A DNA stretch of 59,951 bases from Candidatus Lindowbacteria bacterium RIFCSPLOWO2_12_FULL_62_27 (GCA_001784175.1 MFPR01000017.1:155024-214974); one strand, 5' to 3'; counted from the stretch's first letter, positions 19,385 through 39,705 are shown. Numbers and translations: made by a program. Notes: generated from the letters alone by a model not told the origin.

Positions 19385-19388
19385 CGAT

Positions 19389-22095: not shown

Positions 22096-22111
22096 ATATG
22101 GAGAAGCGGCG

Positions 22112-22570
22112 ATGACGGCGGTCAGGACATATTTTTCCGACGTGTTCATGGGTCTGTGGACGGCGCTGGTCGGGATGTCGATCACGCTGAGGTATCTTTT
22201 TTCCAAGCCGGTGACGGAGATGTATCCGGACGTGAAGCCCCGGACGCCGACGCGGTACCGCGGGATACACGTGTTCGAGGAGGAGAAGTGCATCGGCTGT
22301 TACGTCTGCGCGAAGGCCTGTCCGGTCGACTGCATCGAGATCGGGGTGGTGCGGAAGGGCAAGGAGATCAAGATCACGAAATTCGACATCGATTATCAGA
22401 AATGCATGTTCTGCGATCTCTGCTGTGAACCCTGCCCGGCCCACTGCATTCACATGGGTCCCGAATTCGAAAAGGCGTCGTTCACGCGCAAGGGCACGAT
22501 CCTCCAGTTCGCGACCCCGAAGACATTGACGGAGGAAGAGAAGAAGGTCGAGAAGGTGGCCCGGAAATAG
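22112..22570 (+). CDS. nuoI: NADH-quinone oxidoreductase subunit I
   Basis: Two CxxCxxCxxxCP motifs. Confidence 0.95.
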   Translation: MTAVRTYFSDVFMGLWTALVGMSITLRYLFSKPVTEMYPDVKPRTPTRYRGIHVFEEEKCIGCYVCAKACPVDCIEIGVVRKGKEIKITKFDIDYQKCMFCDLCCEPCPAHCIHMGPEFEKASFTRKGTILQFATPKTLTEEEKKVEKVARK

Positions 22571-22571
22571 A

Positions 22572-23081
22572 ATGAGCGCTGAGAAGGTTGCGTTTTTCAT
22601 ATTGTCCGGCCTGACGCTCGGCGGCGGGCTGGCGATCCTGTTTTCCGTGCGGCTCATGCGCGCGGTCGTGTATCTGCTCGTGTCGCTCTTCGGCGTGGCC
22701 GGCTTGTACATCCTGCTGAACGCGGAGTTTCTGGCGGCGCTGCAGGTGTTGATCTACATCGGCGGAATCACCATCCTCATGGTGTTCGGCCTGATGCTCA
22801 CCGGGCCGGGCCAGTTCGTGAACCCGGCCGAGAGCCGTTTGAAGGCCGTCGCCGCGGGCGTGTCGAGCCTGACGACCGCGATCGTGCTGCTCTTGATCGT
22901 CAAGAAGACGAAGTGGCCTGCGGGGACGCAGGCGCTTGCCGGTGACACCACGGCCGAGATCGGCCGGCTTCTTCTGACCGACCACGTCTTCGCCTTCGAG
23001 ATCGCCTCCGTGCTGCTTTTGGTGGTCCTGGTCGGCGTCGCGCTCTTTGTGCGTCTGGCCAGGGACGGCGGCAAACCATGA
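22572..23081 (+). CDS. nuoJ: NADH-quinone oxidoreductase subunit J
   Basis: AEFLAALQVLIYIGGI; FEIASVLLL. Confidence 0.95.
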   Translation: MSAEKVAFFILSGLTLGGGLAILFSVRLMRAVVYLLVSLFGVAGLYILLNAEFLAALQVLIYIGGITILMVFGLMLTGPGQFVNPAESRLKAVAAGVSSLTTAIVLLLIVKKTKWPAGTQALAGDTTAEIGRLLLTDHVFAFEIASVLLLVVLVGVALFVRLARDGGKP

Positions 23082-23380
23082 TCACGCTTCAGGAGTATCT
23101 CTCGGTGGGCGCGCTGCTCTTTACGGTGGGGCTTCTGATTGTCCTGTTCCGGCAGAACGCGATTTCGATTCTGATGGGGATTGAACTCATGCTGAACGCG
23201 GCCAACATCAACTTCGTCGCGTTCTCAAACGCGCTCGGCGGGTTGACCGGCCAGGTGCTTGCGATTTTCGTGGTCGTGGCGGCGGCGGCGGAAGCGGCGG
23301 TGGCGATCGCGATCATCGTGCTTCTGTATCAAAACCTGGGCACCGTCGACGTCGAAAAGGCGAGGAACCTGAATGGCTGA
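23078..23380 (+). CDS. nuoK: NADH-quinone oxidoreductase subunit K
   Basis: LMGIELMLNAANINFVAFS; AAAEAAVAIA. Confidence 0.95.
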   Translation: MITLQEYLSVGALLFTVGLLIVLFRQNAISILMGIELMLNAANINFVAFSNALGGLTGQVLAIFVVVAAAAEAAVAIAIIVLLYQNLGTVDVEKARNLNG

Positions 23381-25250
23381 GCTGTACGGGCCGTTGGGCC
23401 TGTCGTGCCTTTTGCACGGGATATTCTTTCCATATTTTATCGCCTTCGGCGTCATCATCCTGTTTTTGCGCCGCTGGGAGAAGGCGGCGATGGCCGTGTC
23501 GATCCTGGCGTCGTCGACGGTTCTCGCGTCCACCCTGATGCTTTTTGCGCGCCACCAGGGTCTGGCCGCCGGCCATGAGGGGGTTCTGCCGGCGGCGACC
23601 TACACACTGAGCTGGCTGTCCACGGACTCGGCGGCGTTTCAGTTCGGGTACATTCTGGATCCGCTGTCGGTGTTGATGCTGATCGTCGTCGAAGTGGTGA
23701 GTTTTCTGGTGCAGGTTTATTCGATCGGCTACATGCACGGCGACCCGGGCCGCGCGCGGTTTTACGCGTATCTGTCGCTGTTCTCCGGCTCGATGACGGG
23801 CCTGGTCGTGTCGCCGAATCTTCTGCAGACCTACATTTTCTGGGAGCTGGTGGGGCTGTGTTCGTACTTGTTGATCGGTTTCTGGTGGCACAAGCCGGAG
23901 GCGGCGGCCGCCGCGAAGAAGGCCTTCGTGATGACGCGGTTCGGGGATTTGGGGCTGTTCATCGGGCTGCTCATGCTGCTCCACGCGAAGGGCAACGCGG
24001 CGTTCACCGATTTCGGAACGCTGGGACTGCCGGCCGGTCTCGCCACGTGCATTTCGCTCCTGATTTTTTGCGGCGTGATCGGCAAAAGTTCGCAGTTCCC
24101 CCTGCACGTGTGGCTGCCGGACGCGATGGAGGGGCCGACGCCGGTGTCGGCCCTGATCCACGCGGCGACGATGGTGGTCGCCGGCGTGTATCTTCTGTCG
24201 CGCTCGGCGCCGCTGTTTCTGGCGTCCGAAACGGCGATGCTCGTGGTGCTCTCCTTCGGCGTCGTCACCGCCTTTGTGGCCGCGACCATGGCGTGCGTCC
24301 AGCGGGACATCAAGAAAGTGTGGGCCTACTCGACCGTGTCGCAGCTCGGATACATGGTGCTGGCCTTCGGCGCAGGCAGTTCGCAGGCGAGCATGTTTCA
24401 TCTGTTCACGCACGCTTTTTACAAGGCGCTGCTTTTTCTGGGCGCCGGCAGTTTCATCCATCACGCCGGCTCCAACGATCTCTTCGAGATCGCGCGCAAG
24501 GGCGGGCGCGGCATGCGGATCACGTTCTGGACGACGGTGATCGGCGCGCTGGCGCTGGCGGGCCTGCCGCCGTTTTCTGGATTTTTCAGCAAGGACGCGA
24601 TCCTGGTGGCGGTGAAGGAGAATTGCCATCCGCTGTGGTACATCAGCGTGATGTTTGTCGGGTTTCTGACCGCGTATTATTCGTTCCGGGTCGTGTTCAT
24701 CCTTTTTCGAAAACAGGAGGCTGGTCCCGGAGTCGCGCACGGGCACGGCGGCCACGACTCGCCGTTGGTCATGACCGGCCCCTTGATGGTGCTTGCGCTG
24801 GCGACGATCTGCGTGGGCGCCTGGGAGGGGGGCTTCGGCCATTATCTGTCAGGCGCGCCGCATGGCGCTCTGCATTGGGACGTCGCGATCCCGGCGACGT
24901 TTCTTGCGCTGCTTGGCATAGTTCTGGCCGGCGCGTCGTTCGGCTCAGGCGGGCGGGAGGAGGGCGTATTGGACCGGCTGCCGGTCATGGAGATACCGCG
25001 GCGGAAATACTATCTGGATGATTTCTATTACTGGGTCACGCAGAAAATCGTGCTCGGATTTTCCTTCCTCTGCGCCTACGTCGACCGGCACTTCGTGGAC
25101 GGCGCGGTGAACGGCGTGGCCGACACCGTGCGCTGGATGGGCAGCCAGTGGTCGAAGATGCAGACCGGTCAGGTGCAGCAGTACCTGAACGTGTTGATCC
25201 TGATTTTTTCCATATTGGGCTTCGGCGTGTATCTGACGGTGAAATTCTGA
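23373..25250 (+). CDS. nuoL: NADH-quinone oxidoreductase subunit L
   Basis: YSIGYM, FWELVGLCSYLLIGFW, GKSSQFPLHVWLPDAMEGPTPVSALIHAATMV, HAFYKALLFL. Confidence 0.96.
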   Translation: MAELYGPLGLSCLLHGIFFPYFIAFGVIILFLRRWEKAAMAVSILASSTVLASTLMLFARHQGLAAGHEGVLPAATYTLSWLSTDSAAFQFGYILDPLSVLMLIVVEVVSFLVQVYSIGYMHGDPGRARFYAYLSLFSGSMTGLVVSPNLLQTYIFWELVGLCSYLLIGFWWHKPEAAAAAKKAFVMTRFGDLGLFIGLLMLLHAKGNAAFTDFGTLGLPAGLATCISLLIFCGVIGKSSQFPLHVWLPDAMEGPTPVSALIHAATMVVAGVYLLSRSAPLFLASETAMLVVLSFGVVTAFVAATMACVQRDIKKVWAYSTVSQLGYMVLAFGAGSSQASMFHLFTHAFYKALLFLGAGSFIHHAGSNDLFEIARKGGRGMRITFWTTVIGALALAGLPPFSGFFSKDAILVAVKENCHPLWYISVMFVGFLTAYYSFRVVFILFRKQEAGPGVAHGHGGHDSPLVMTGPLMVLALATICVGAWEGGFGHYLSGAPHGALHWDVAIPATFLALLGIVLAGASFGSGGREEGVLDRLPVMEIPRRKYYLDDFYYWVTQKIVLGFSFLCAYVDRHFVDGAVNGVADTVRWMGSQWSKMQTGQVQQYLNVLILIFSILGFGVYLTVKF

Positions 25251-26731
25251 TGGAGCACGGATTCGGCATTCTGACGTCGATGTGGGTGACGCCGATGATC
25301 GGCGTCCTCATTTTGATTTTCCTGCCATCGCGGTACGAGACCGGCGTGCGCCTGGTGTCGCTGCTCGCGGCCGCGATCACGCTTGTGTCGTCGATTTACC
25401 TGTACATTCAATTTGACCCGCGCGGCGGATTTCAGTTCGAGGAGAACATGCTCTGGATCGACTATTTCGGCGTCCGCTATCACCACGGGGCCGATGGCCT
25501 GTCAGTGCCGTTGCTCCTCCTGACGTCGATCGTCATTTTCTGCGGGATTCTGTCATCGTGGGACGGGATCAAGCACCGGGTAAAGGAATTTCACATTCTC
25601 ATGCTGCTGCTCGTGTCCGGCGTGTTCGGCGTATTCATCTCTCTGGACGCCGTGTTCTTTTTCATTTTCTACGAGATCGCCGTTCTGCCGATGTATCTGC
25701 TGATCATTGTGTGGGGCTCCACGCGCAAGGAGTATTCCGGGATGAAACTGACGCTGTATCTTCTGTTCGGGTCGGTCTTCGTGCTCATCGGTCTGATCGC
25801 GGTCTACGTCCACACGGGCATGAAGACGACGGACCTGCTCGAGTTCAAGGCGCTTCTTGCGGCGAACCCGCCTTCGGACCTTTTTGTGCGCACGATTTTT
25901 CCTATGATGTTCCTGGGATTCGGGATGCTGGCCGCGATCTGGCCCTTCCACACGTGGTCCCCGGACGGCCACGTCGCCGCGCCGACGGCGGCGTCGATGC
26001 TGCATGCCGGGGTCCTCATGAAACTCGGCGCGTTCGGCATCCTGCGTGTCGCCGTGTATCTTTTGCCGGAGGGTCTTCGATACTGGGCCGACATGATCGT
26101 GGCGCTGTCGCTGGTGAACATCATCTACGGCGCGTTCGTGGCGATGCACCAGACGGACCTCAAGTTCGTGATCGGATACTCGTCGGTGTCCCACATGGGG
26201 ATCGTGATGTTCGGGATCGGGATGCTGAACTACGAAGGATTCGCCGGCGCGGCCTTCCAGATGTTCGCGCACGGCGTGATGACCGCGCTCTTTTTTGCCT
26301 GCGTCGGCGCGATCTACGACCGCGCGCACACGCGGCAGATTCACGCTTTCGGCGGGATCTACCGGCGGATGCCGATCGTCTGCGGCGCCTTTCTGTGCGG
26401 GGGCCTGGCGGGTCTGGGCCTGCCGGGCTTTGCGGGATTCGTCGCGGAGTTTCTGGTGTTCTGGGGCGCGTTCAAGGCGCATCCGGTGATCGCGTCGATC
26501 GCGGTGGTGGGCTTGGTGTTGACGGCGTTTTACGTGTTGCGCGTATTTCAGCGCGCGTTTTTCGGCGAGCCGAATCCGAAATGGGATGGTCTGACGGACT
26601 CGTCGGCGATTCAAAACACCGCCTACGCGATCCTGATCGGCACGATGCTGGTCTTCGGAATCTGGCCGCGCCTGTTTTTGGACATCGCGCAGGCTGACCT
26701 GAACCTGCTTCTTTCCGAGGTGCTCCGCTGA
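25250..26731 (+). CDS. nuoM: NADH-quinone oxidoreductase subunit M
   Basis: PFHTWSPDGHVAAPTAAS, LMKLG, YSSVSHMG, LPGFAGFVAEF. Confidence 0.95.
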   Translation: MEHGFGILTSMWVTPMIGVLILIFLPSRYETGVRLVSLLAAAITLVSSIYLYIQFDPRGGFQFEENMLWIDYFGVRYHHGADGLSVPLLLLTSIVIFCGILSSWDGIKHRVKEFHILMLLLVSGVFGVFISLDAVFFFIFYEIAVLPMYLLIIVWGSTRKEYSGMKLTLYLLFGSVFVLIGLIAVYVHTGMKTTDLLEFKALLAANPPSDLFVRTIFPMMFLGFGMLAAIWPFHTWSPDGHVAAPTAASMLHAGVLMKLGAFGILRVAVYLLPEGLRYWADMIVALSLVNIIYGAFVAMHQTDLKFVIGYSSVSHMGIVMFGIGMLNYEGFAGAAFQMFAHGVMTALFFACVGAIYDRAHTRQIHAFGGIYRRMPIVCGAFLCGGLAGLGLPGFAGFVAEFLVFWGAFKAHPVIASIAVVGLVLTAFYVLRVFQRAFFGEPNPKWDGLTDSSAIQNTAYAILIGTMLVFGIWPRLFLDIAQADLNLLLSEVLR

Positions 26732-26745
26732 TCTCGTGGTCGCGC

Positions 26746-28188
26746 GTGATCGACGTCGCGCCGGAGGCGTACGTTCTGGGCCTGGCGGTCTTCTGGCTGA
26801 TCGTGTCGGTGGTGCGGCCCGGCCGGGATTGCACGTGGCTGGCGATCGTTCTGGGTCTGGTCGGGATCTGGATCACGTGGGAGTCGTCGTTTCGATTCGG
26901 CGTCATGTCGCCGCAGATCCGTTTCTATCAGGCGTATCGCGTGGACCTCTTCTCGCAGGGATTCAAGCTGCTTCTCATGATCGGCTACGTCCTCATTCTG
27001 AACCTCCACAAGAGCGACCGGTCGCTCGTGAAGCGCTCGCAGGCCGAGTATCAGTTTCTGCTGGCGGCCGCGCTTTTCGGGATGATGATGCTGACGAGCG
27101 TCTACGACCTGTTGGTGTTGTATCTGGCGATGGAGACGACGTCGTACAGTTTGTACGTGCTGTGCGTTCTGCGGCGGCGGGTGACTGAATCGACGGAGGC
27201 GGGCCTGAAATATGTGCTGATCGGCGCGGTGTCCTCGGCCGTCATGCTGTTCGGCATCAGTTATCTCTACGGCCTGACCGGCACGACCTCCATCCCCGGC
27301 GTCATGTCGAGGTCGGCGGACCTGGTGAACACGCCGGGCTTTGTCCTCGGGATGTTTCTTCTGTTCTCCGGTCTCTTTTTCAAACTCGCGGCCTTTCCGT
27401 TCCATTTCTGGGCCCCGGACGTGTACGAAGGGACCAGCAACCAGGTGGCGGCGTACTTGGGGACGGTGTCGAAAGTCGCCGCGACCGCGTTCATTTTGCG
27501 CGTGGTGTCGATGATGCCGAAGGCCGCCGAGGTGATGAACGTCGCGCTGTACGTGGTGGCGATTGCGTCGATGACCTACGGCAATTTCGTCGCGATCCGT
27601 CAGACGGACATGAAGCGGATGCTGGCCTATTCGGGCATCGGCCACATCGGCTACCTCATGGTCGGGGTCCTGGCGGCGATCAACATGGGCGAGTCCGGCT
27701 ACACCGCGACGATCTACTACACGGGCATGTACATGATCATGAACTTCGCCGCGTTCATGGTGGTCCACGCCTGCGTCGACGAGTCGGGCCGCGCCCTCAT
27801 CCGGAACTTCAACGACCTGTACCGCCGCTCGCCGCTTCTGTGCGCGACGCTGGTGGTCTCGATGTTCACGCTGGGCGGCATTCCGCCGATGGCGGGATTT
27901 TTCGGCAAGCTCTATCTCTTCATGACCGCTTTTAAGGGCGGATTCGTGTGGCTGGTGGTGGTGGGGCTCTTGAACAGTTTCGTTTCCCTTTATTATTATC
28001 TGCGCGTCTGCAAGGCCGCGTTCATGGATCCGCCGGCGGCGCCGATGCCGGAGATCCGGCTGGAGCCGCGCCGGGCGGCGCTGTGCATCATTCTGATCGC
28101 CTACATGGTCCTGTTCGGTTTCTTCTCCAACGCGGTCGACAACTACGCCGCGCTGGCCCGCTCTCTCTTGGGACCCATCGGCGTTTAA
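26746..28188 (+). CDS. nuoN: NADH-quinone oxidoreductase subunit N
   Basis: EAGLKY, FKLAAFPFHFWAPDVYEG, KRMLAYSGIGHIGY, GIPPMAGFFGK. Confidence 0.96.
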   Translation: MIDVAPEAYVLGLAVFWLIVSVVRPGRDCTWLAIVLGLVGIWITWESSFRFGVMSPQIRFYQAYRVDLFSQGFKLLLMIGYVLILNLHKSDRSLVKRSQAEYQFLLAAALFGMMMLTSVYDLLVLYLAMETTSYSLYVLCVLRRRVTESTEAGLKYVLIGAVSSAVMLFGISYLYGLTGTTSIPGVMSRSADLVNTPGFVLGMFLLFSGLFFKLAAFPFHFWAPDVYEGTSNQVAAYLGTVSKVAATAFILRVVSMMPKAAEVMNVALYVVAIASMTYGNFVAIRQTDMKRMLAYSGIGHIGYLMVGVLAAINMGESGYTATIYYTGMYMIMNFAAFMVVHACVDESGRALIRNFNDLYRRSPLLCATLVVSMFTLGGIPPMAGFFGKLYLFMTAFKGGFVWLVVVGLLNSFVSLYYYLRVCKAAFMDPPAAPMPEIRLEPRRAALCIILIAYMVLFGFFSNAVDNYAALARSLLGPIGV

Positions 28189-28998: not shown

Positions 28999-30132
28999 AT
29001 GCCGACCGTGTCCTGGCGCGCGTCGCCGCTCCTTGTGGTTGCGGGATTCGCGCTGTCGGGGGTTCTGACGGGGGCGCTTTTGCAGACGGACGTGATCGCG
29101 TATGAGCGGACCTTCGGGCTGAACCACGCGCAGGTATCGTTCTGGCTGAGTTTTTTTTCGCTGCTCACGGCCATCGGCGGCACCGCCGCTTCCTGCGTGT
29201 CCGACCGGTTGGGCGCGGGCCGGATTTATCGCGGAAGCCTGCTCCTGTCGGGGCTGGGACTTCTCGCGTTTTCCCGGGGCACCGAGCCTTGGATACTCGC
29301 CGGCGTTGTCACCGGGGGCCTCGGAATGGGCGGGCTGGTGGTGGGAAATATTCTTGTATCTCAAGGCGAGAGCGCCGCGCCGAACCGGGCGCTGAACCGG
29401 CTGCACGCGGCGCACAGTCTCGCGCGCCTGGCGGGCGTTCTTCTGTCGATGGCGGTTCTGGCCATGTCCTGGCAGACGAGCTATGCGGTGCTGGGCGCCG
29501 TTTTTTGTTGCCTTGCGGCGCTGTACTGCGCTCCGGGGTTCCAGACGGCGGCGCCCGTTTCGCCCAACAGTCCGGCCGGCGGCGGTATTTCGAAATTGCC
29601 GCTCTCGTCGATCGCTCTTGGATTTTTCGTGTACATGACGGCCGAAATGATTTTGATCACGTGGCTTCCGGCCTACCTCGAACGCGACCGGCAGTGGGGG
29701 AGCCTCGCGTCCAAGTCTGCTTATGGCGTGTTTCTCGCGGGCATGATTGCCGGCCGCATGATGTGCGCGGGCCGCTGGCCGGAAGAGCTGACGTCGTCGT
29801 CGTGTGCGGTGCTGGCGGCGGCGCACGCGGCGGCCATCGCCCTGTTTATTTTTTTGCCGAACCCGGCGGCGGCCCACGTTGCGCTGGCGGTGGCGGGTTT
29901 CTGTGAAGGCCCCGGCTGGCCGTCGCTGTATGCCTACGCGATCCGCCGATCGAGAGGCGCGGAGGGTAAGGTCACCGGCGTGATTTATGTCGCCGTCTGT
30001 TCGGGCATCCTCGTGTCGACCGCCGGGAGCGGCGTTCTGGCGCAACGCGCGGGGTTGGAGAGTGTCTTCTACGTCGTCGGCGTTGCCCACGCGGCGTTCA
30101 GCCTCATTTTTCTGAATCTGCTCAGGCGGTGA
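28999..30132 (+). CDS. MFS transporter
   Basis: About 12 hydrophobic segments; motif-A-like SDRLGAGR. Confidence 0.8.
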   Translation: MPTVSWRASPLLVVAGFALSGVLTGALLQTDVIAYERTFGLNHAQVSFWLSFFSLLTAIGGTAASCVSDRLGAGRIYRGSLLLSGLGLLAFSRGTEPWILAGVVTGGLGMGGLVVGNILVSQGESAAPNRALNRLHAAHSLARLAGVLLSMAVLAMSWQTSYAVLGAVFCCLAALYCAPGFQTAAPVSPNSPAGGGISKLPLSSIALGFFVYMTAEMILITWLPAYLERDRQWGSLASKSAYGVFLAGMIAGRMMCAGRWPEELTSSSCAVLAAAHAAAIALFIFLPNPAAAHVALAVAGFCEGPGWPSLYAYAIRRSRGAEGKVTGVIYVAVCSGILVSTAGSGVLAQRAGLESVFYVVGVAHAAFSLIFLNLLRR

Positions 30133-31703
30133 GCGGCGTGGTTGGTGACCGTGTGGTGATCACGCGGTGGTTCATCCGCTGTCTGGGTCTCGTCCATCTG
30201 TTCAATTTCGGCTCGCTGGCCGAGCAGGTCCGGCGCTGTCTCGGGAGTGACGGGCTTTCGCCGGTAAATGATTACATACAGGGCCTGTGGGGCAACACGA
30301 GCCTGACCTATTTCGAGCGGATCGTGGAGTGTCCGAGCCTGTTCTTGTGGTTTCCGGGCGACGCCGCGCTGATCGGATGCGCCTGGGCCGGTGTGGTCCT
30401 TGCGCTCATGACGATTGCGGGACTCTTCAGCCGATGGTGTTTCATCCTCATGTTCATTCTGTATGGCAGCGTCATGGAAGTCGGCGGTGTACTGTACAGT
30501 TTCCAGTGGGACCTGCTCATTCTGGAGACGACGTTCCTTGCGATCCTCCCGCCATCGAGCGGCGTGCTGTTTCGGAAGTGGACGCGCGGCGCGGACGCGC
30601 TGGTGACGTGGCTGATGCTGTGGCTCGTGTTCCGGCTCTACATCGAGTCCGGCGTGGCCAAGCTTTTCTGGGGCCCGGACACGTGGGCGACGCTCGACGC
30701 GATGCGGCGCTACTACGAAACGGCGCCGATCCCGACCTGGATCGGCTGGCATGCGCATGCGCTGCCGGCCGGATGGCACCAGTTCGAGACGGGCGCGACG
30801 CTGGTGGTGGAGCTGCTGTTTCCGGCGCTGATCTTCGCGGGCGCGTGGCCCCGGCGGATCGGGTTTGTGGTTTTCACCGGATTTCAGATCGGGATTATCC
30901 TGACCGCCAATTACGGGATTTTCAATTACAATTCGATCTGCCTCCACCTTTTCCTGCTCGACGATCACGATCTTGCCGCGATCGCCCGGCGGCTGCCGGT
31001 CATGCGCCGGCGCTTCGCCGAGTGGACGCCCGGCCCGCCGGCACGGCCGCGCGGGTGGATGGCTCCGATCGCGGCGGTGGTGATCGCGTGCACGATCATC
31101 GAGTTTCTGATGCTGGCGGGCGGCCGGGCGATTCACGAGACCGAGGTGGCGAAGATCGAGCGCTACGTTCGCGCGACGCACATCGCGAGCAAATACCATC
31201 TCTTCGGGCCGATCGACCCGACGCGATACGAAATGGTTTTCGAAGGAAGTCCCGATCACCAGACCTGGTTTGAGTACGAATTCCCGTACAAGGCCGGGAG
31301 CCTGCGCCGGCCGCCTCCGTTTGTGGCGCCGCACCATCCGCGCGTGGATTTCCGGATGTGGTTCGAGCGATATCCGCTCCGGTGGAACAACCTGACGATC
31401 CCGTATCCGGACGCGTCGGCGGCGCCCGCCGCGCTGCCGTCCTATGTCAACAAGCTCGCCGTCCAGTTGCTGGAATCGCCGCACCTGGCGCTGCGGCATT
31501 TTGTATCCGACCCGCTGAAGGGCGCGAAGCCGGTCGAGGTACGAATCACATTTTACCATTACCGTATGACGCGCCGAGGTTCGCCGCCGGCGGCGGGCGG
31601 CCAGTACTGGGAGCGGGAGAAGGTCGGAACGCTCTACGTCGATCCCAAGCTCGGCCGGGACGGTCGGTCCGGTGCCGTGCCGCAGCGCACGACGGGGCCG
31701 TAA
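30129..31703 (+). CDS. lipase maturation factor (LMF) family protein
   Basis: SFQWDLLILETTFL, FRLYIESGVAK, YYETAPIP, TANYGIFN, APHHPRVDFRMWF. Confidence 0.9.
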   Translation: MSGVVGDRVVITRWFIRCLGLVHLFNFGSLAEQVRRCLGSDGLSPVNDYIQGLWGNTSLTYFERIVECPSLFLWFPGDAALIGCAWAGVVLALMTIAGLFSRWCFILMFILYGSVMEVGGVLYSFQWDLLILETTFLAILPPSSGVLFRKWTRGADALVTWLMLWLVFRLYIESGVAKLFWGPDTWATLDAMRRYYETAPIPTWIGWHAHALPAGWHQFETGATLVVELLFPALIFAGAWPRRIGFVVFTGFQIGIILTANYGIFNYNSICLHLFLLDDHDLAAIARRLPVMRRRFAEWTPGPPARPRGWMAPIAAVVIACTIIEFLMLAGGRAIHETEVAKIERYVRATHIASKYHLFGPIDPTRYEMVFEGSPDHQTWFEYEFPYKAGSLRRPPPFVAPHHPRVDFRMWFERYPLRWNNLTIPYPDASAAPAALPSYVNKLAVQLLESPHLALRHFVSDPLKGAKPVEVRITFYHYRMTRRGSPPAAGGQYWEREKVGTLYVDPKLGRDGRSGAVPQRTTGP

Positions 31704-31744: not shown

Positions 31745-32614
31745 TCAGCGGCTGCTGTAGCGGCGTTCCAGCTCGTAAAACCGGTCGAGGTCCACCATGG
31801 CGTGGAAATCGGACCATGGAAGAAGCATGTCCAAATGATCGCGCGTGGTGCCCTTCTCGCGCAGGAGCCGGAAGACGTCGGAATAGGCGCGGGCCGCCGC
31901 GTAGAGGGCGCTCAGCGGATGGACGACGAGATCGAATCCGATCTCGTGGAGTTCCTCGGGCGTCTGGAGCGGCGTTTTGCCTTTCTCGAGCATGTTGGCG
32001 ACTTTGACGCCCGGGACCTCCCGGCCGATCGTTCTCATCTCGTCGACCGAGTGCGGCGCCTCGATGAAGGTCGCGTCCGCGCCCATCTCGTGCGCGCGCT
32101 GCGCCCGCCGGATGGCCTCGTCGAGGCCGAGCGGCTCGCGGGCGTCGGTGCGGGCGACGATGAAGAAATCGCCGGTCGCGCGGCCGTCGATGGCCGCCTG
32201 CAGTTTCGATTCGAATTCCTCCGGCGGGATGACTTCCTTGCCGGCCATGTGCCCGCATTTTTTGGGCCAGACCTGGTCTTCGAGAAACATGCCCGCAACC
32301 CCGGCTTGCTGGAGGCCGCGGACGGTGTGAATCACGTTCAGCGCGTTGCCGTATCCGGTATCGGCGTCGACGATGAGCGGCGTCGACGGTTCGGCTGCGC
32401 AGACCCGCCGCGCGACGTCGATCATTTCTGTGGCGGTGAGGAGCCCGAAATCGGGCGAGGCGAGGCGCGTGGCCGACATGCTGTATCCGGACGTGAAGAT
32501 GACCTCAAATCCGGCGCGGACGGCGATCCGGGCGGTGAGGGGATCGAACACGCCGGGCATGAGAAGCGGCTGCCCGGTCTGGAGTCTCTGCCGGATTCGC
32601 TCCGCGAGCGTCAT
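31745..32614 (-). CDS. isocitrate lyase / PEP mutase family protein (methylisocitrate lyase or CPEP mutase-like)
   Basis: DADTGYG, LEDQVWPKKCGH, ARTDA. Confidence 0.9.
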   Translation of the reverse strand: MTLAERIRQRLQTGQPLLMPGVFDPLTARIAVRAGFEVIFTSGYSMSATRLASPDFGLLTATEMIDVARRVCAAEPSTPLIVDADTGYGNALNVIHTVRGLQQAGVAGMFLEDQVWPKKCGHMAGKEVIPPEEFESKLQAAIDGRATGDFFIVARTDAREPLGLDEAIRRAQRAHEMGADATFIEAPHSVDEMRTIGREVPGVKVANMLEKGKTPLQTPEELHEIGFDLVVHPLSALYAAARAYSDVFRLLREKGTTRDHLDMLLPWSDFHAMVDLDRFYELERRYSSR

Positions 32615-32673: not shown

Positions 32674-33057
32674 ATGGAGAGACGAACTTATTCGCGCACT
32701 GTGATTTTCGACGGCGACTGCGGGTTTTGCCGGCGGTCGATCCGGATCGGCCGGGCGCTCGACTGGTTCGGCCGGATCTGGTGGCGGGCGAGACTCGAGC
32801 CCGGGGTTCGGGAGGAATTTCCGCAGCTCAGCGACGAGGAAACCCGGAACCGGATGGTGTCGATCCTGCCGGACGGGCGGACCTTCGGTGGCTTTTACGC
32901 CGTTCGCGACATCCTGGTCCGCCTGCCGCTCACCGCGTTGCCGGCGCTCCTCCTGTACATCCCCGGCGTATCGATCGTCGGCGTGCCGGTCTACCAATGG
33001 ATCGCGCGGAACCGCCACCGGTTCGGTGGGCGTCAAGACGATCAGTGCGCTATGTGA
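32674..33057 (+). CDS. DCC1-like thiol-disulfide oxidoreductase (DUF393)
   Basis: IFDGDCGFC; YQWIARNRHR. Confidence 0.9.
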   Translation: MERRTYSRTVIFDGDCGFCRRSIRIGRALDWFGRIWWRARLEPGVREEFPQLSDEETRNRMVSILPDGRTFGGFYAVRDILVRLPLTALPALLLYIPGVSIVGVPVYQWIARNRHRFGGRQDDQCAM

Positions 33058-34249
33058 CCAGGAGGCTGCGCAGGCACGGGACACCGGCGTTGCGCCACGT
33101 CAGCGGCGGGCGCTGCATGAGGCCCGGCGGGCAGAAGTAACTCGCGCCGAGTCTTCGCAGGAGCGGCTCGAGGATTTCGAGGTCGTCCACAGGCGCGGCG
33201 CCCACGCCCTGGAGGCGGCCGTCCTGCGGCTGCAGCAGGGCCGCAACTTCGGCAAGTGATCGAACCGGTTTGACGAGAATCGTGCGGCCCAGCGGAGAGG
33301 GGTGAAAGATTGGCGCGGTGTCGATCACGATTGTGTAGGCGAGCCGGTCGCCGAAGAAACAGGGCGCGCCGTGAAAGGCGTAGTCTCCGCGAAAATTCCT
33401 GATCTCACCCGCCTGCGCCACATCCATGCGGCCCGCCGGCAGGGATTCGGCGAGAAGCTGCATCTCCCCGGCGAGCATTTCGCAAAACCGCGCCGGCGCG
33501 ACCGGCGCGCCGGCCGCGATAAAGGCGCAGTGTGGCGAGAGGCAGCCGGACTGGTCGTACATCGCGACGTCGATCGCCAATCCCTTCGCCGCGTCCAGCG
33601 CGCCCGCCTCATTTTGCAGGGCGCCGTCTCTGATCACTGCCACGCTGACTTTGTGTCCATGCCCGACGACGCGCGCGCAGGGCGGCGCCGAAGCGCGGAT
33701 CGCTGTGATGGTTTCGTCCGATCCATAGGCCACGACCGTGTCGGCGTTCAAGGCAGCGATATCCGAATGATCAAAATATCCGGCCTCGACGGCCGCGCCG
33801 ACGTCGGGATCGACGGACCGGAGGGCGTCGGTGAAGATCGGCAGGATCGTTTTCTCATGGGACGAGCATTTGACCACGATCGGAGACTTGACGAGGAGCG
33901 AATAGACGACGCCGTTGACCGCCGGTTGAAAGATGGCGCCCGCCGCGATCAGAAGCGTCGCGCCGGGCGACCGGATCGCCGGGTCGTCGGCCGCGTCGTC
34001 GCTGCCGAGATCGTCGATGAGGACCCGGCGCATCTCGCCCGCCGTGATCTCGGAGAAGGTCCAGTCCAACGCCCGCTCGATCATCGGCGCGCTGAATCCG
34101 GACTGCGCCGCGCCCTCCCGCACGGCCCGGTGCCTCAGCGCAGACCCGGGCGCCAACAGTTCGCCCGCCGCAGCCTCAAGGCTCGCCATGATCCGGCGCA
34201 CCGGAACCTGACGCAACCGCGCGCGCGCGGCCTCCCGACGTCCGGTCAA
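33050..34249 (-). CDS. LuxC-like acyl-CoA / acyl-protein reductase
   Basis: LLVKSPIVVKCS, VVAYGSDETI, HGHKVS and catalytic YDQSGCLSPH. Confidence 0.85.
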   Translation of the reverse strand: MTGRREAARARLRQVPVRRIMASLEAAAGELLAPGSALRHRAVREGAAQSGFSAPMIERALDWTFSEITAGEMRRVLIDDLGSDDAADDPAIRSPGATLLIAAGAIFQPAVNGVVYSLLVKSPIVVKCSSHEKTILPIFTDALRSVDPDVGAAVEAGYFDHSDIAALNADTVVAYGSDETITAIRASAPPCARVVGHGHKVSVAVIRDGALQNEAGALDAAKGLAIDVAMYDQSGCLSPHCAFIAAGAPVAPARFCEMLAGEMQLLAESLPAGRMDVAQAGEIRNFRGDYAFHGAPCFFGDRLAYTIVIDTAPIFHPSPLGRTILVKPVRSLAEVAALLQPQDGRLQGVGAAPVDDLEILEPLLRRLGASYFCPPGLMQRPPLTWRNAGVPCLRSLLVT

Positions 34250-34251
34250 GT

Positions 34252-35355
34252 TTACTTGGGCAGCATCTCGTCGATGAGGAGGGAACAGCCGCGGGGATCG
34301 GCGCCCTTGGCCCGGCCGATGATCCTGAATCCGCCGCCTTCCTGGACGCCGATGTCCTCGGTCTGAATCGAGACGACCGACCCGCGGTTGGCGAGGTCCG
34401 TCACGCGGATGAGTCCGGGCACGCCGGGCGCCGCCGGCTCGTCGGTCACCGGATCGATGATCCTCACGCGCACCCAGGGCGGCGGAACCTTGACCGCCGG
34501 CCCGGCCGATCCGGTTTGGATGAGCGTCCGGAGGGAGTCGTCGTAGATCTGTGAGGAAAGTTCCGTCATTCCGTACTCGTTGACGACCCAGGCCGGCGGG
34601 ATCCCGAGGATGTCCCGGGCCAGTTCGTAGAAACGCTCGCGCGTGACCTCCCGGGATTTCCCCTTGTATCCGCCGGTTTCCATGATCCGGCTTCCGGCCG
34701 GCAGCGCGAATTTTATTTGTTTTTCGGCGAGCGCGTCAAAGAGGTGGACAAAGGCGAATGCCGGTCCCATCAGAATCCTCGGATCGCCGGTTTCGACCGA
34801 CAGGCCCAGGTCCTCCACCAGCGCGTCGACGTTGAGCTTTCGGTCGTGGATGTACCATTCCGCGTTGACGGCGAAGGCGTCCGCCGCGATGCGGCACATG
34901 TAGACGAGGCTTGAGTGCGGCGCCTCCTCGATCGTCGGCAGCAGTATACGCATCGGGAGGCTCGCGCCGTCCGGCAGGACATGCCGGCCGAAATTGGGGA
35001 TGGCCGACTCGTCGTAGAGCATCAGCGTATCGAGATGGTGTTTGCCGGGTTTGCCGGTGGTCGTTCCCGACGTTTCAAACACGCGGACGGTCTTGGCGGG
35101 CGAGAAGCTGGCGAGGACCGCCGCCCTGAAGGCGGTCGTGGGCGCGGCCGGGATTTTTTCCCACGAGGAGACCTGAGCCGGAGTCGTCCGCCGCAGCATG
35201 CAGAACATCCGGTACGGCGTGTTCTGGGCGAACTGGTGCGCAAAGAGTTCCACTGCCAGGCCGTTGAACTGTTCCTCGCCGACCTCTTCCGAAAGGGACT
35301 GATGGATGAAGTCGACGATTTTCCGGTCCAGGGCCTGCGCGAAGGCGCCGTTCAT
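34252..35355 (-). CDS. LuxE-like acyl-protein synthetase (ANL superfamily)
   Basis: FETSGTT, METGGYKG, NEYGMTELSSQ, DLANRGS, TEDIG and C-terminal GRAKGADPRGCS acylation Cys. Confidence 0.88.
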   Translation of the reverse strand: MNGAFAQALDRKIVDFIHQSLSEEVGEEQFNGLAVELFAHQFAQNTPYRMFCMLRRTTPAQVSSWEKIPAAPTTAFRAAVLASFSPAKTVRVFETSGTTTGKPGKHHLDTLMLYDESAIPNFGRHVLPDGASLPMRILLPTIEEAPHSSLVYMCRIAADAFAVNAEWYIHDRKLNVDALVEDLGLSVETGDPRILMGPAFAFVHLFDALAEKQIKFALPAGSRIMETGGYKGKSREVTRERFYELARDILGIPPAWVVNEYGMTELSSQIYDDSLRTLIQTGSAGPAVKVPPPWVRVRIIDPVTDEPAAPGVPGLIRVTDLANRGSVVSIQTEDIGVQEGGGFRIIGRAKGADPRGCSLLIDEMLPK

Positions 35356-35365
35356 GGGCGGCGGG

Positions 35366-35695
35366 TCAGTATCCTTCCTCGATCTTGCACCATGCGGGAA
35401 TGTGGGATGCCGTCTGGATGTCGATTTCAACGCGGAGCGCCGTGGGCTGCGCGATTTCCTTGACCGTATCGAAAATCTCCCGGGCCAGCGCCTCGGAGGA
35501 CGTCTCGGCCTCGTCAAAGCCCCGGATGAAGTCTCCGAAGGACAGATATTCGATCAGCAGCGCGCCCGGCCGGTACGTCACGATGACTTCGCCGGCAAAC
35601 CGCTCGTCGGTGACGGAACAGATGGTCGAAAAGGCCGACCGCAGCGCGACTTCGGATATCCCATGAACGTTGGGAAGCGTGTCGAAAGCGGACAT
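35366..35695 (-). CDS. QueF / QueF-L-like single-domain T-fold protein, divergent
   Basis: 109 aa; FSTICSVT...VIVTYRP...LIEY.SF...SEALAREIFD...P..LRV aligns by eye with the QueF pattern FTxLCPxT...IxYxP...VE.KS...HE...I.D...P..LRV. Confidence 0.65.
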   Translation of the reverse strand: MSAFDTLPNVHGISEVALRSAFSTICSVTDERFAGEVIVTYRPGALLIEYLSFGDFIRGFDEAETSSEALAREIFDTVKEIAQPTALRVEIDIQTASHIPAWCKIEEGY

Positions 35696-35701
35696 TCGGA
35701 C

Positions 35702-37069
35702 TCAACCCTCCCGGATTTTTATTTCTGTCAGGGCATCTTCCAAGACACCGACGCAAAAGTCAATCTCGCGTCGGCCGACCACCAGCGGCGGGGAGAGCGA
35801 AATGACATTCTGATGGATGCCCCCGCCGAGGATCATGAGCCGCCGGCGGAGCGCTTCGACGACCACGCGGCTGCACCGTTCGGGATCGGGAGTTTTCGTC
35901 CGAAGGTCCTTGACCAGCTCGATCCCCGCGATGAGCCCCTGCCCGCGAATGTCGCCGACCCCCCGCAGCCCGCCGAGCCGGCGGGCCAGTTCGGCGCGCA
36001 AATAGGACCCCATCCGCTCCGCCCGGCTGTGCAGCGAGCGCCTTATATATATGGAGAGAGCCGCGAGTCCCATGGCACAGCCGAGGGGGTTGCCCAAGAA
36101 GGTGCTGGTGTGGATCGCCTCGCCGGCCGACCGGCCCCAGCGGCGCATGACGGCCGGCGTGCCGATGCAGGCGGACATGGGAAACCCGCCGGTCATGCCC
36201 TTTCCGAGGCACAGGATGTCCGGCGTCACCCGTTCGTGTTCGCAGGCGAACATGCGGCCGGTGCGCGCAAACCCCGTGTAGATCTCGTCGGCGATCAGGA
36301 GGATCCGTTCGCGCCGGCAAAACCGGGCAAGCCTCGCCAGCCAGCCGGGCGGCGGCACAATCTCGCCGCCCCTGCCCTGGATAGGCTCAACGATCACGGC
36401 TGAAAACCGCCGGGCGCCGCCCGCCGCGCGAATTTTCCGTGCGGCGCCGTCGAGGCAGGCGATGCCGCAGCCGGGATACGCGAGTTTCAGCGGGCAGCGG
36501 TAGCAGTAGGGGTAATCGACGAAGAGCGTTTTTTTTGAAATCCTTCCGGCGAAGGGCGCTCGAAACATGCGCTGGCCGGTGACCGAGAGCGCGCCGTAGG
36601 AGAGTCCGTGGTAGCTGCCGGAGAACGCTACGAGCGCATCGCGTCCGGGCCGCGCGATCTGCGCCGTCTTGATGGCCGATTCGACGGCGTCCGATCCGTT
36701 CTGGGAGAGGATGGTTTGCGAAAGCGCGCCGGGCGCGGCGCCGGCGAGGGCCGCCAGGAATCGGGATTTGATTTCCGGCGGATGAACGTCGCCCATACCG
36801 TGAATCATGAGTCGCGTCTGGCGGCGAAGGGCGGCGATGAGCGCGGGATGGCCATGCCCAAGATTCGCGACCGCAAACGCGGCCGTCATGTCGACGTAGC
36901 GCCGTCCCCGGACGTCCCAGACGAAACACCCGGACGCTTTCCGCCAGAAGACGGGGAAGTCTCCGGAAAAGTAAGTGACCTCGGGACACTCATGGGCCCT
37001 CAGGGCCCGTACGAGATCCTGCACATGTTTGTCCACAGAACCTTTTCGCTTGGCGGGCATCTCCGGCAT
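35702..37069 (-). CDS. class III PLP aminotransferase (GABA / omega-amino acid transaminase-like)
   Basis: DVRGRRYVD, GSDAVESAIK, SYHG, VEPIQGRGG, LIADEIYTGFARTG, PDILCLGKGMTGG, HTSTFLGNP. Confidence 0.92.
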   Translation of the reverse strand: MPEMPAKRKGSVDKHVQDLVRALRAHECPEVTYFSGDFPVFWRKASGCFVWDVRGRRYVDMTAAFAVANLGHGHPALIAALRRQTRLMIHGMGDVHPPEIKSRFLAALAGAAPGALSQTILSQNGSDAVESAIKTAQIARPGRDALVAFSGSYHGLSYGALSVTGQRMFRAPFAGRISKKTLFVDYPYCYRCPLKLAYPGCGIACLDGAARKIRAAGGARRFSAVIVEPIQGRGGEIVPPPGWLARLARFCRRERILLIADEIYTGFARTGRMFACEHERVTPDILCLGKGMTGGFPMSACIGTPAVMRRWGRSAGEAIHTSTFLGNPLGCAMGLAALSIYIRRSLHSRAERMGSYLRAELARRLGGLRGVGDIRGQGLIAGIELVKDLRTKTPDPERCSRVVVEALRRRLMILGGGIHQNVISLSPPLVVGRREIDFCVGVLEDALTEIKIREG

Positions 37070-37150
37070 GGTATGTTGTCCCTTCCGAGGCAGTCAACGG
37101 CGCGCGCCGTGCTTGAAAATAGGGCTAAACGACAGTAAACTCCCTGTGGT

Positions 37151-38509
37151 ATGAGCCGAAAGACTGTACATATCGACAAGGTTGAACAGGGGATGAAGCT
37201 TGCGTCCGCTGTCGTGACCGTATCGGGTCAGCGGCTGATGGCGGCCGGCGCGGTTCTGGACGGCGAAAACATCGGGCTTCTGAAGAAGGCGGGCATCCGG
37301 TACGTCCAAATTTACGAGACCGCCTATCAGGAATCGATCGACGAGAGCGTATTCAAGGATGTTCTGAAGCGAATGGCCGAGCGCGCCGGCGCCCCCGTTC
37401 CGCCGTTGCCCCCGGTTGCGCCGCCTGCGCCGCCGCCTCCCGCCCCCGCGGCCTTGCCGGGCGATGAGGGCCTCAAGCGCGAGGAAGCCAGGAAAACGGC
37501 GGAGAGCCTGCGGGCGAAGCTTCAGGAGGACCGCGCGCGATACGCGCAGGAATTCGGCGAGCGATACACGACGATCTCCTACACGCTGGGCGACCCGATC
37601 CCGAGGGCGCCGGCCACGCCGGACGCGGCGTTTGTGGATCTGCTCAACGTTCTGGTGCGGAACATGACCGACAAATTGATATTCGAGCGCCGGATCGACG
37701 AAGACACGGTCCAGCTTCTGGTGCGGGACGTGATCACAGAATTGTCGAGCCGGGAGAACGTGATGCAGCTTCTGACGACCGCGTATTCGGTCAGCCGGTA
37801 TCTGTTGTCGCACATGGTAAACGTGAGCCTGTTTTCGATGCGCGTGGCCGCAGAGATGAAGCTGAGTTCGGCCGAGGTGACCGACACGGCCATCGGCGCG
37901 GTCCTGCACGATATCGGGATGGTCCTCATTCCGGTGGGATTCTGGACCACGCGCCGGGAACTCACGCCGAACGCGCGGTCCGAGGTCCAGAAACATCCGG
38001 AACTCGGCTACCGGCTGATCCGCGAGACGCCGAACACGCGGGAGGCGTGGGCCCTGCCCGCCCTGGATCATCACGAGCGCCTGGACGGCGGGGGCTATCC
38101 CCAAGGCAAGCGTTTCGAACAGTTGTCGGTCGGCTCCCGGATCGTCCAGATCTGCGACGTCTACGAGGCCCTGACGTCCGACCGGTCGTATCGATACGCA
38201 AAGTTTCCCGACATATCGATGAAGCACATCCTCGGGAGTCCCGACCAGTTCGACCGGGAGATCGCGCAGGTGTTTTGCAAATCCCTGGGATTTTACCCGG
38301 AAGGCTACAGCGTGAGGCTGTCGACCGGCGAGCATGCCGTGGTGCTGTCCTCGAATCCCAAGAACGTCTTCCGGCCGCTGATCCGGCTGCTGACCGATTC
38401 GAAGGGCGCCACGCTCGATCCGGACGCGCAGCTCGAGCTGGACCTGAACCACCGGCTGGACCTGCGGATCGTCGAGATCTCGAACCGGCGGATGCCGGCC
38501 GCGTCCTGA
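37151..38509 (+). CDS. HD-GYP domain protein (cyclic dinucleotide phosphodiesterase)
   Basis: LHDIG, HP, HHERLDGGGYP, DVYEAL...R.YR. Confidence 0.9.
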   Translation: MSRKTVHIDKVEQGMKLASAVVTVSGQRLMAAGAVLDGENIGLLKKAGIRYVQIYETAYQESIDESVFKDVLKRMAERAGAPVPPLPPVAPPAPPPPAPAALPGDEGLKREEARKTAESLRAKLQEDRARYAQEFGERYTTISYTLGDPIPRAPATPDAAFVDLLNVLVRNMTDKLIFERRIDEDTVQLLVRDVITELSSRENVMQLLTTAYSVSRYLLSHMVNVSLFSMRVAAEMKLSSAEVTDTAIGAVLHDIGMVLIPVGFWTTRRELTPNARSEVQKHPELGYRLIRETPNTREAWALPALDHHERLDGGGYPQGKRFEQLSVGSRIVQICDVYEALTSDRSYRYAKFPDISMKHILGSPDQFDREIAQVFCKSLGFYPEGYSVRLSTGEHAVVLSSNPKNVFRPLIRLLTDSKGATLDPDAQLELDLNHRLDLRIVEISNRRMPAAS

Positions 38510-38517
38510 GGCCTGAC

Positions 38518-39705
38518 GTGCCCCGATACGAAATCTACCATCTTCAGGCCAACGTGATGTTCGACGCCCCGCTCTATACCCCCGAGAAGCTCCTCCTCAT
38601 GCCCGCCCGGCGCCTCGTGACCGCCGACGATCTGGCCGCCCTCAAAAAGTGGCAGGTCGACTACGTGGAGACGTCCGGCCGGAAGCTGACGGACCAGGAA
38701 GTGGAGCGCATTCTTCAGACGATGATGGCGAAGAAGGCCTCGACGCGGGCGCTGTACGGGAAGGTCAAGGACTACGAGAAGAAGCGGGCGTTCGAGTTTT
38801 ATGTGGACGCCGAGGGACTCGTGCGCACCATGTCCGAAGCGCTTTGCTCCGGGATGCGCGTCGATCCGGAGAAGCCGCGGGGTCTGGTGAGGCGGCTGGT
38901 CGAGGAGATCCGCCGCAGCCGCGACATTTATTTGAACATCATTCACAACGATTACGGCAAGGAGGAGCACCTGGTGTTTCACATGCTCAACAACATGGTC
39001 CTGTGCCTGACGATCGGCGTCTCGTCCAACATGCGCGAGGAGGATCTGCTGACCCTCGGCCTCGGCGCCTTTTTCGCCGACATCGGGATGCTCAAGGTTC
39101 CCAAGCACGTCCGGGACAAGACGCGGGAGCTGACGGAATCGGACCTTTCCATGATCCGCAAGCATCCGCTCGAAAGCGAGAAGATCCTGAACCGGTGGAT
39201 TGAAGATTACGACGACGCGGTCATCCGGATGGCGGTCGAGCATCATGAGAACGTCGACGGCAGCGGTTATCCGTACGGCAAGAAATCGCACGAGATCCAC
39301 AGCCACGCCAAGATTCTCGCACTGGCCGACGTTTACAACGCCATGACCAAGAAACGGACCTACCGGGAGGGCAAGGCGGCGGTGTCGGCGATGAAGGAGC
39401 TCCTGCTCATGAAGGACAAAAAATTCGACGCCGCCATCCTGAAGACCTTTCTCGGCGTCATGTCGGTCTTCCCGGTCGGCACGATCATCAAGCTGTCGGA
39501 CGGGACGTTCGCGCTCGTGGTGCGCCCGAACGTCGGCATGCCGCTTCAGCCGATCGTCAAGGTTTTGTTCGACGCCGAGGGCAAGCGCCTGGAGCAGCCG
39601 GTGCTGGTCGATTTGAGGAGCGAGTCGCCGCAAGACGGCGTGAAGATCGTGGGTCCGGTGGATCCGGCGTCGCTTCCCAGGATTGACATTGTCGACGAGC
39701 TCTGA
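38518..39705 (+). CDS. HD-GYP domain protein with degenerate HD motif (AD)
   Basis: FADIG, HHENVDGSGYP, DVYNAMTKKRTYR. GTG start 38518 inferred. Confidence 0.85.
   Translation: MPRYEIYHLQANVMFDAPLYTPEKLLLMPARRLVTADDLAALKKWQVDYVETSGRKLTDQEVERILQTMMAKKASTRALYGKVKDYEKKRAFEFYVDAEGLVRTMSEALCSGMRVDPEKPRGLVRRLVEEIRRSRDIYLNIIHNDYGKEEHLVFHMLNNMVLCLTIGVSSNMREEDLLTLGLGAFFADIGMLKVPKHVRDKTRELTESDLSMIRKHPLESEKILNRWIEDYDDAVIRMAVEHHENVDGSGYPYGKKSHEIHSHAKILALADVYNAMTKKRTYREGKAAVSAMKELLLMKDKKFDAAILKTFLGVMSVFPVGTIIKLSDGTFALVVRPNVGMPLQPIVKVLFDAEGKRLEQPVLVDLRSESPQDGVKIVGPVDPASLPRIDIVDEL

Follow-up and report, generated by a model that had tools for sequence, protein, structure and literature searches.

Four co-oriented genes lie head to tail on the minus strand of a 59,951-nucleotide (nt) stretch of DNA from Candidatus Lindowbacteria bacterium RIFCSPLOWO2_12_FULL_62_27 (GCA_001784175.1 MFPR01000017.1:155024-214974; this whole stretch is referred to below as the window), and they form a candidate operon for making the queuosine precursor preQ1 (7-aminomethyl-7-deazaguanine) without a nitrile intermediate. 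From the upstream end they encode a class III (omega-type) aminotransferase (35702-37069; 455 amino acids (aa); PF00202), a QueF-like T-fold protein (35366-35695; 109 aa; PF14489), a LuxE-like ATP-dependent acyl-protein synthetase (34252-35355; PF04443) and a LuxC-like acyl-thioester reductase (33050-34249; 399 aa; PF05893). The longest form of the LuxE open reading frame (ORF; 34252-35517) begins at a TTG inside the T-fold gene. Translation from the ATG at 35355 yields a 367-aa protein that matches profile positions 18-390 of 391, near end to end, and with this start the ORF listing gives intergenic gaps of 6, 10 and 2 nt.

The phylum is represented in our collection by four genomes, the host and three sister genomes (G001-G003). 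All four share one gene order (aminotransferase, T-fold, LuxE, LuxC), and its retention in the three sisters indicates that the arrangement is not a chance juxtaposition. Between host and sisters, conservation is highest for the small T-fold protein (76-83% identity), compared with 66-70% for the aminotransferase, 49-59% for the LuxE-like protein and 48-49% for the LuxC-like protein. The surroundings are housekeeping in character and include a nuo operon (19230-28188), tyrS, coaX and adk.

Each protein exceeds the Pfam cut-off of its family: Aminotran_3 (PF00202) at 320.1 bits against a cut-off of 30.5, LuxE (PF04443) at 83.8 against 24.9, LuxC (PF05893) at 158 against 21 and, only just, QueF (PF14489) at 30.0 against 27.3. 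All four stay below the NCBIfam equivalog cut-offs; they are superfamily members, not members of characterised subfamilies. The best equivalog score of the aminotransferase is 327.9 (cut-off 574), and its NCBIfam matches include the PigE model at 242.8 bits (cut-off 850). The T-fold protein scores 27.6 with TIGR03139 (QueF-II; cut-off 86.9), the LuxE-like protein 59 with NF052244 (long-chain-fatty-acid ligase of lux operons; cut-off 550) and the LuxC-like protein 59.6 with NF052251 (LuxC of lux operons; cut-off 750).

LuxE and LuxC work through cysteine thioesters. The cysteine of the LuxE 'RGCS' motif (C357), which we take to be the C-terminal acylated cysteine of LuxE, is invariant in 12 of 12 aligned homologues, and that of the LuxC 'DQSGC' motif (C236) in 10 of 10. 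Among the 37 window ORFs scanned with Pfam, no family of luciferases, LuxD, acyl carriers or fatty acid synthases was detected, although the whole genome was not searched for luxAB or luxD. With no luxAB or luxD among the scanned ORFs, we rule out a bioluminescence operon. A preliminary description of the locus had reported four co-oriented genes with these gaps, intact catalytic cysteines in LuxE and LuxC, and no luxAB or luxD, and it is confirmed on all three points, on the last for the ORFs scanned.

The host genome, which is 94% complete, encodes most of a queuosine pathway: FolE2 (283.6 bits), QueD with its CxxxHGH motif, a 238-aa QueE-like protein that has the five QueE models as its top NCBIfam matches (61-87 bits, each short of its cut-off), Tgt (454 bits), QueA (364.6 bits) and QueG (268.6 bits, cut-off 200). 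Neither FolE type I nor the transporter YhhQ was found in the host genome, and QueT reached 21 bits, below its cut-off of 33.7. Tgt is present in all four phylum genomes and QueA in three (the exception, G003, is 88% complete). Canonical QueF is found in none of the four: the only PF14489 match in each, as in the host, is the T-fold protein itself at ~30 bits. Likewise, no phylum genome has QueC over its cut-off of 150.3 bits, the scores being 50-65. By this inventory the phylum appears to make 7-carboxy-7-deazaguanine (CDG) and to need preQ1, with no recognised way between them. QueC and QueF are the only steps from CDG to preQ1 given in the pathway excerpts of PMC10516641 and PMC5372724, and an excerpt of the latter reads tgt-positive, queF-negative genomes as salvagers.

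We consider it fairly probable, from the gene content and context described here, that the operon supplies preQ1 for queuosine-tRNA from CDG without a nitrile and so replaces QueC and QueF. In the proposed route FolE2, QueD and QueE would lead to CDG; the LuxE-like enzyme would adenylate the CDG carboxylate and pass it to Cys357 as a thioester; the LuxC-like enzyme, using Cys236 and NAD(P)H, would reduce the thioester to 7-formyl-7-deazaguanine; the aminotransferase, with pyridoxal 5′-phosphate (PLP), would turn this aldehyde into the aminomethyl group of preQ1; and Tgt, QueA and QueG would complete queuosine on the tRNA. We infer the substrate and every chemical step from the protein families, catalytic cysteines, gene order, pathway hole and que linkage that are observed. 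The proposed aldehyde is already known as a compound: QueF variants release 7-formyl-7-deazaguanine upon hydrolysis of the imine intermediate (PMC13740343). Like QueC and QueF, the module would act between QueE and Tgt, convert CDG to preQ1 and use ATP and NAD(P)H. It would differ from them in dispensing with the nitrile, in drawing nitrogen from an amino donor via PLP and not from ammonia, and in employing three unrelated families (an ANL-type LuxE, an aldehyde-dehydrogenase-superfamily LuxC and a class III aminotransferase). Our literature search, which did not cover supplements or subscription journals, found no paper linking LuxE, LuxC or a transaminase to preQ1 formation.

For a view beyond the phylum, the window LuxE-like protein was searched (E up to 1e-10) in 297 genomes of other lineages, and the neighbourhoods of all matches were examined. 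LuxE-like proteins (28-48% identity) are present in 17 genomes. A class III aminotransferase, 33-45% identical to that of the window, is clustered with the LuxE gene in ten of these (G080, G297, G151, G284, G129, G128, G206, G148, G083 and G244), and a LuxC-like gene accompanies the pair in seven of the ten. LuxE and LuxC occur without an aminotransferase in G036, G163, G141 and G296, and G033 has a class I/II aminotransferase with LuxE in place of class III. Between the aminotransferase and LuxE genes of G129 (L080, 6820-7158), in the position that the T-fold gene has in the window, lies an ORF for a 112-aa Cys-rich protein with a hydrophobic N-terminus; it matches neither Pfam nor the T-fold profile and may be spurious.

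Carriers of the module have queuosine genes and tend to have no QueF. All 17 LuxE-positive genomes encode Tgt, QueA and QueD/PTPS and 15 encode a QueE-like protein; QueF exceeds its cut-off in three (G141, G163 and G296) and QueC in four (the same three and G151). Compared with the presence of QueF in 156 of the 297 sampled genomes overall, these 3 of 17 give a Fisher p of 0.0045, and the aminotransferase-LuxE clusters, with QueF in 0 of 10, a Fisher p of 0.0005. All ten aminotransferase-LuxE genomes have Tgt, QueA, QueD and a QueE-like protein, with canonical QueC in one of them (G151, 153.8 bits), and seven (G297, G284, G129, G128, G148, G083 and G244) combine this set with no QueC, QueF or YhhQ over cut-off. 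The three QueF-positive genomes have no adjacent aminotransferase, and their LuxE proteins form a separate clade in the LuxE tree (support 0.999); LuxE probably does something else in these genomes.

Genes of 7-deazaguanine synthesis are also physically linked to the module. In G206 aminotransferase-LuxE-LuxC is immediately preceded by a QueE gene of the same strand (TIGR04349, 306.9 bits against a cut-off of 300). The same holds for QueE in G080 (275.4 bits), where the frame ends about where the aminotransferase begins. The genes for the aminotransferase, the LuxE-like protein, a LuxC-like protein (PF05893, 29.7 bits), QueD and QueE are contiguous in G148, with overlapping ends. In G036 (L077; G036:C8, 6655-10383) LuxE-LuxC is followed by a convergent tgt, with no adjacent aminotransferase; here no QueF exceeds its cut-off, and the QueC relative is a weak one (81.6 bits). 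With the T-fold gene of the window included, a 7-deazaguanine gene lies inside the cluster in four lineages, and tgt lies beside it in a fifth.

The preliminary description had suggested that the operon reduces and aminates CDG directly, and had asked whether its carriers possess folE, queD, queE and tgt while lacking queC and queF, and whether the T-fold gene is conserved in the operon. The host shows this profile, with FolE2, QueD, a QueE-like protein and Tgt and with no canonical QueF or QueC; the ten carriers in unrelated lineages largely repeat it for QueD, QueE, Tgt, QueF and QueC; and the T-fold gene is present in the operon in all four phylum genomes. The support that the suggestion has gained is comparative, coming from the pathway hole, the anti-correlation with QueF and the linkage to que genes.

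The T-fold protein belongs to a family of small proteins. Beyond the sister genomes, 15 further near-identical proteins (75-88%) were found in metagenomes, and an exhaustive profile search (E up to 1e-3) gathered 212 representatives, almost all between 100 and 150 aa long. Across 45 family members Cys26, Glu68 and His98 never vary, and Glu49 and Pro43 hardly do; in Pfam, 38 of the 45 match QueF and 27 match GTP cyclohydrolase I. By sequence, the closest PDB entry is the archaeosine synthase QueF-L (E 1.8e-9), followed by GTP cyclohydrolase I and QueF. A structure model (predicted local distance difference test score 96.1) finds its best fold match in QueF-L (5jyx; TM-score 0.87-0.92, root-mean-square deviation 1.4 Å) and also matches QueF (4f8b; TM-score 0.83, Foldseek probability 1.00). 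In a hidden Markov model alignment Cys26 falls on the thioimide-forming cysteine of QueF-L and Glu68 on the glutamate of the 'HE' pair.

The resemblance to QueF-L (PDB 5jyx and 5k0p; Crenarchaeota) thus extends to the length of 109 aa, the fold, the aligned cysteine and purine-anchoring glutamate, and the missing NADPH motif. The two differ in that identity is ~20% and the T-fold protein has no Asp seven residues after the cysteine and an extra invariant residue, His98. Unlike QueF-L, the T-fold protein is bacterial or phage-borne and stands beside a synthetase, a reductase and an aminotransferase, not an archaeal arcTGT, and the host Tgt is of the bacterial type and adjoins QueA. To judge from these alignments, the protein is a probable QueF-L-like binder of 7-deazaguanines that has lost the QueF NADPH motif, with Cys26, Glu68 and His98 as predicted binding residues. 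A conserved cysteine in a deazaguanine pocket suggests covalent capture of a C7 electrophile. We put forward, tentatively and with some doubt, that the T-fold protein keeps the reactive C7 acyl group or aldehyde bound to Cys26, in thioester or hemithioacetal linkage, before passing it on; alternatively, it might feed preQ0 from a divergent QueC relative into the same route. A role as FolE is ruled out by its size of 109 aa and by the presence of FolE2 in the host.

Relatives of the T-fold protein also occur in phages. A sister clade of ~110-aa proteins (hhalign probability 99.8%) is found in phage-like contigs and metagenomes, at loci on metagenome and viral contigs (L012, L013, L014, L019, which shares a contig with L031, L021, L022, L023, L024 and L032); the contig of L013 carries terminase and portal genes. 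The ORF after the T-fold gene was scanned at seven phage or metagenome loci, and at six of them it encodes a YhhQ/Vut_1 transporter; YhhQ is the preQ0/preQ1 transporter family (PMC5372724). At four loci a class I S-adenosylmethionine methyltransferase gene precedes the T-fold gene, and at a fifth (L032) the two are fused. Upstream of the phage methyltransferase there is a conserved ORF of ~400-470 aa with no relative in the PDB. One member of the family, P0039 (303 aa), joins an N-terminal QueD-like/DpdL-like domain with an LxxxHRHxF motif to a C-terminal T-fold domain, and by tblastn its N-terminal part matches hypothetical-protein genes of phages phiST and ACP17. The dpdL genes of these two phages have been tested, the DpdL motif is LxxxHRHxF, and DpdL is the proposed CDG decarboxylase of phages without QueC (PMC10516641). 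A tblastn search of cultured phages and plasmids for T-fold relatives gave no match for P0053 at E up to 0.1. The sister clade with its YhhQ and methyltransferase genes looks like an undescribed phage 7-deazaguanine module, and through the YhhQ neighbours and the DpdL-like fusion the wider T-fold family appears to be tied to 7-deazaguanines.

Several observations weigh against the proposed route or narrow what it can claim. Some concern the T-fold protein. QueF binds NADPH through the motif E(S/L)K(S/A)hK(L/Y)(Y/F/W) (PMC10516641); at this site the window protein reads 'EYLSFGDF' and the family consensus 'EFxSFExW', with both lysines lost. The catalytic cysteine of Bacillus subtilis QueF is Cys55 and its proton donor, Asp62, lies seven residues further on (excerpt of PMC13740343). 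This Asp is not kept in the T-fold family, where the consensus is 'xVxxxPFxG'; the window protein has Asp at +4 and Glu at +5 after the cysteine. Without the NADPH motif and the Asp, the T-fold protein is ruled out as the organism's real QueF, and alone it cannot be a reductase. Nor does the T-fold gene travel with the module. No family member was found with the A2 profile within ~7 kb of the module at 12 loci of other lineages, and across 301 genomes the same profile gave, outside the phylum, only matches of at most 57 bits that resemble ordinary QueF or FolE. The T-fold protein is a lineage-specific accessory of this phylum and not part of the enzyme core, which, going by the loci of other lineages that have the same module and no T-fold gene, would consist of the other three enzymes.

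Further points of this kind concern the module and its distribution. LuxC is missing beside LuxE in G128 (L081), G083 (L086), G244 (L087) and G033 (L073), where the neighbourhoods only were searched. YhhQ is present in 4 of the 17 LuxE-positive genomes, in which salvage is possible. The 141 of 297 genomes that form the QueF-negative background may include some without Tgt, which was counted in the 17 carriers only. Related genomes do not count as independent cases: G129 and G284 come from the same family, and synteny links G083 with G244. With the sister genomes at 81-91% completeness, the absence of a gene from a single one of them is weak evidence. No preQ1 riboswitch or any other Rfam family reaches its gathering score in the window, and a riboswitch search of 36900-37300 returned nothing relevant at E up to 10. 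The LuxE-like and LuxC-like proteins, for which a CDG-derived substrate is proposed, score far below the bioluminescence equivalog cut-offs. Finally, a QueC relative is kept in all four phylum genomes, with its SGGxDS loop and Cys-rich zinc motif, and it might still make preQ0, which would put the pathway hole at QueF alone.

This protein is the main uncertainty between a full bypass and a replacement of QueF only in this phylum. In the host it is encoded at G000:C23:34763-35368 (locus L002, 1462-2139, minus strand) and scores 51.5 bits with TIGR00364 (cut-off 150.3) and 72.1 bits with the PADLOC QueC model. The canonical QueC motifs are SGGxDS, YxQxHxxE, VPxRN, YPDC and C(x)8CxxCxxC (excerpt of PMC13329287); SGGxDS and the Cys-rich C-terminal motif are kept, VPxRN reads 'LPGRN', and YxQxHxxE and YPDC are lost. 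At E up to 1e-3 the PDB offers a single match, Cap9, described as a QueC relative of type IV cyclic oligonucleotide-based antiphage signalling systems that conjugates deazaguanine to protein. The host gene has a glycoside hydrolase and a HAD protein as neighbours and no defence context.

If this relative did make preQ0, the operon could replace QueF only: the T-fold protein would capture preQ0 on Cys26 as a thioimide, LuxC and the aminotransferase would finish preQ1, for example via an imine or aldehyde, and LuxE would recycle hydrolysed CDG. The retention of the P-loop and zinc motif in 4/4 phylum genomes fits this scheme, as do the match of the T-fold protein to the thioimide complexes of QueF-L and QueF, with the cysteine aligned, and the case of G151, which has canonical QueC and the module without QueF. 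We nevertheless judge it unlikely. QueC over cut-off is missing in nine of the ten aminotransferase-LuxE genomes and no T-fold gene was found at the searched loci, so that there the module must start from CDG. The proton-donor Asp of QueF is not kept, the QueC relative finds its sole PDB match in the protein-conjugating Cap9 and not in canonical QueC, and an ATP-dependent synthetase would have no obvious role.

The module could instead make another amine from another acid, for example an alkylamine from a fatty carboxylate for a lipid or glycan, with the T-fold and que neighbours as passengers and preQ1 obtained by some salvage route. It would then resemble the LuxC/LuxE-aminotransferase sets of flagellin glycosylation islands and the tambjamine reductase-transaminase pairs. 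Fatty acids are the only substrates for which LuxE and LuxC are known to have been characterised, and the LuxC-LuxE pair of bioluminescent bacteria shares with the operon the Pfam families, the adjacency of the genes and both catalytic cysteines, and likely the same mechanism from adenylate through cysteine thioester to aldehyde. The conversion of an acid through an aldehyde to an amine has moreover been published for fatty substrates: tambjamine TabE/TabA and TamH and prodigiosin PigE follow the same logic from acid or thioester to aldehyde to primary amine (as outlined in part of 10.1101/2025.08.11.669332). Some module loci also lie near lipid genes, such as LPG_synthase_TM and PMT_2 in L076, and the YhhQ genes of 4/17 carriers would allow for the salvage.

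On the other side, the tambjamine and prodigiosin pairs act on fatty acyl chains within biosynthetic clusters, whereas the module forms a separate housekeeping operon found together with tRNA-modification genes. In contrast to the bioluminescence pair, it is coupled to an aminotransferase, is linked to que genes and falls far below the equivalog cut-offs; the coupling and the linkage suggest that the substrate is likely to be a deazapurine acid and not a fatty acid. Three separate lineages have que genes within the operon and a fourth has the T-fold gene there, QueF is absent from all ten carriers while Tgt, QueA, QueD and QueE-like proteins are present in all ten, and it would be wasteful to make CDG for no use. 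The flanking ORFs scanned include no gene for an acyl carrier, a fatty acid synthase or LuxD. A non-deazaguanine amine thus seems to us improbable, and the logic that the nitrile-free route would follow is one already known for fatty substrates, its use in the queuosine pathway being what would be new.

That the operon acts on a 7-deazaguanine whose product is not for tRNA, such as a DNA base, a protein deazaguanylation involving the Cap9-like QueC relative, or a secondary metabolite, would suit the largely phage-borne wider T-fold family with its YhhQ and methyltransferase genes and one DpdL-like fusion, but is very unlikely given the location of the operon among housekeeping genes and not in a defence or phage island, the single TGT match of the host, which adjoins queA, with no DpdA-like second TGT seen, and the QueF anti-correlation in Tgt- and QueA-positive genomes, which points to the tRNA pathway.

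The genes flanking the operon in the window include several of separate interest. Downstream of LuxC, a PrpB/PEP-mutase family gene (31745-32614, minus strand) scores 264.8 bits with TIGR02317 (cut-off 354.4); it adjoins LuxC in one of three sister loci (L008, directly after LuxC) and was ruled out as an operon member. In the window the two are separated by a plus-strand gene for a DCC1-like thiol-disulfide oxidoreductase (32674-33057). Two paralogous HD_5 (HD-GYP-like) proteins are encoded divergently from the operon (37151-38509 and ~38500-39705, plus strand), the first of which occurs at the equivalent position in two sister genomes (L007 and L009; 65-66% identity). The plus-strand gene at 30129-31703 codes for a bacterial member of the lipase maturation factors, a family known chiefly from animals; it has both domains, LMF1 at 145 bits and LMF1_C at 86 bits.

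In its widest form, on which we find ourselves evenly divided, our reading describes an undescribed and widespread branch of queuosine synthesis, in which the module makes preQ1 via 7-formyl-7-deazaguanine and has displaced QueC and QueF in several lineages, the T-fold protein of this phylum, derived from QueF but without its NADPH binding, is kept as a covalent C7 carrier, and its phage relatives apply the same chemistry to imported 7-deazaguanines. If this is true, many genomes scored as queuosine auxotrophs would be prototrophs, and 7-deazaguanine maturation would not have to pass through nitrile chemistry. The module would represent a new enzymatic way to aminomethyl-deazapurines, and the operon would be the first lead to the function of the ~110-aa QueF-like family, whose members are frequent on phage contigs.

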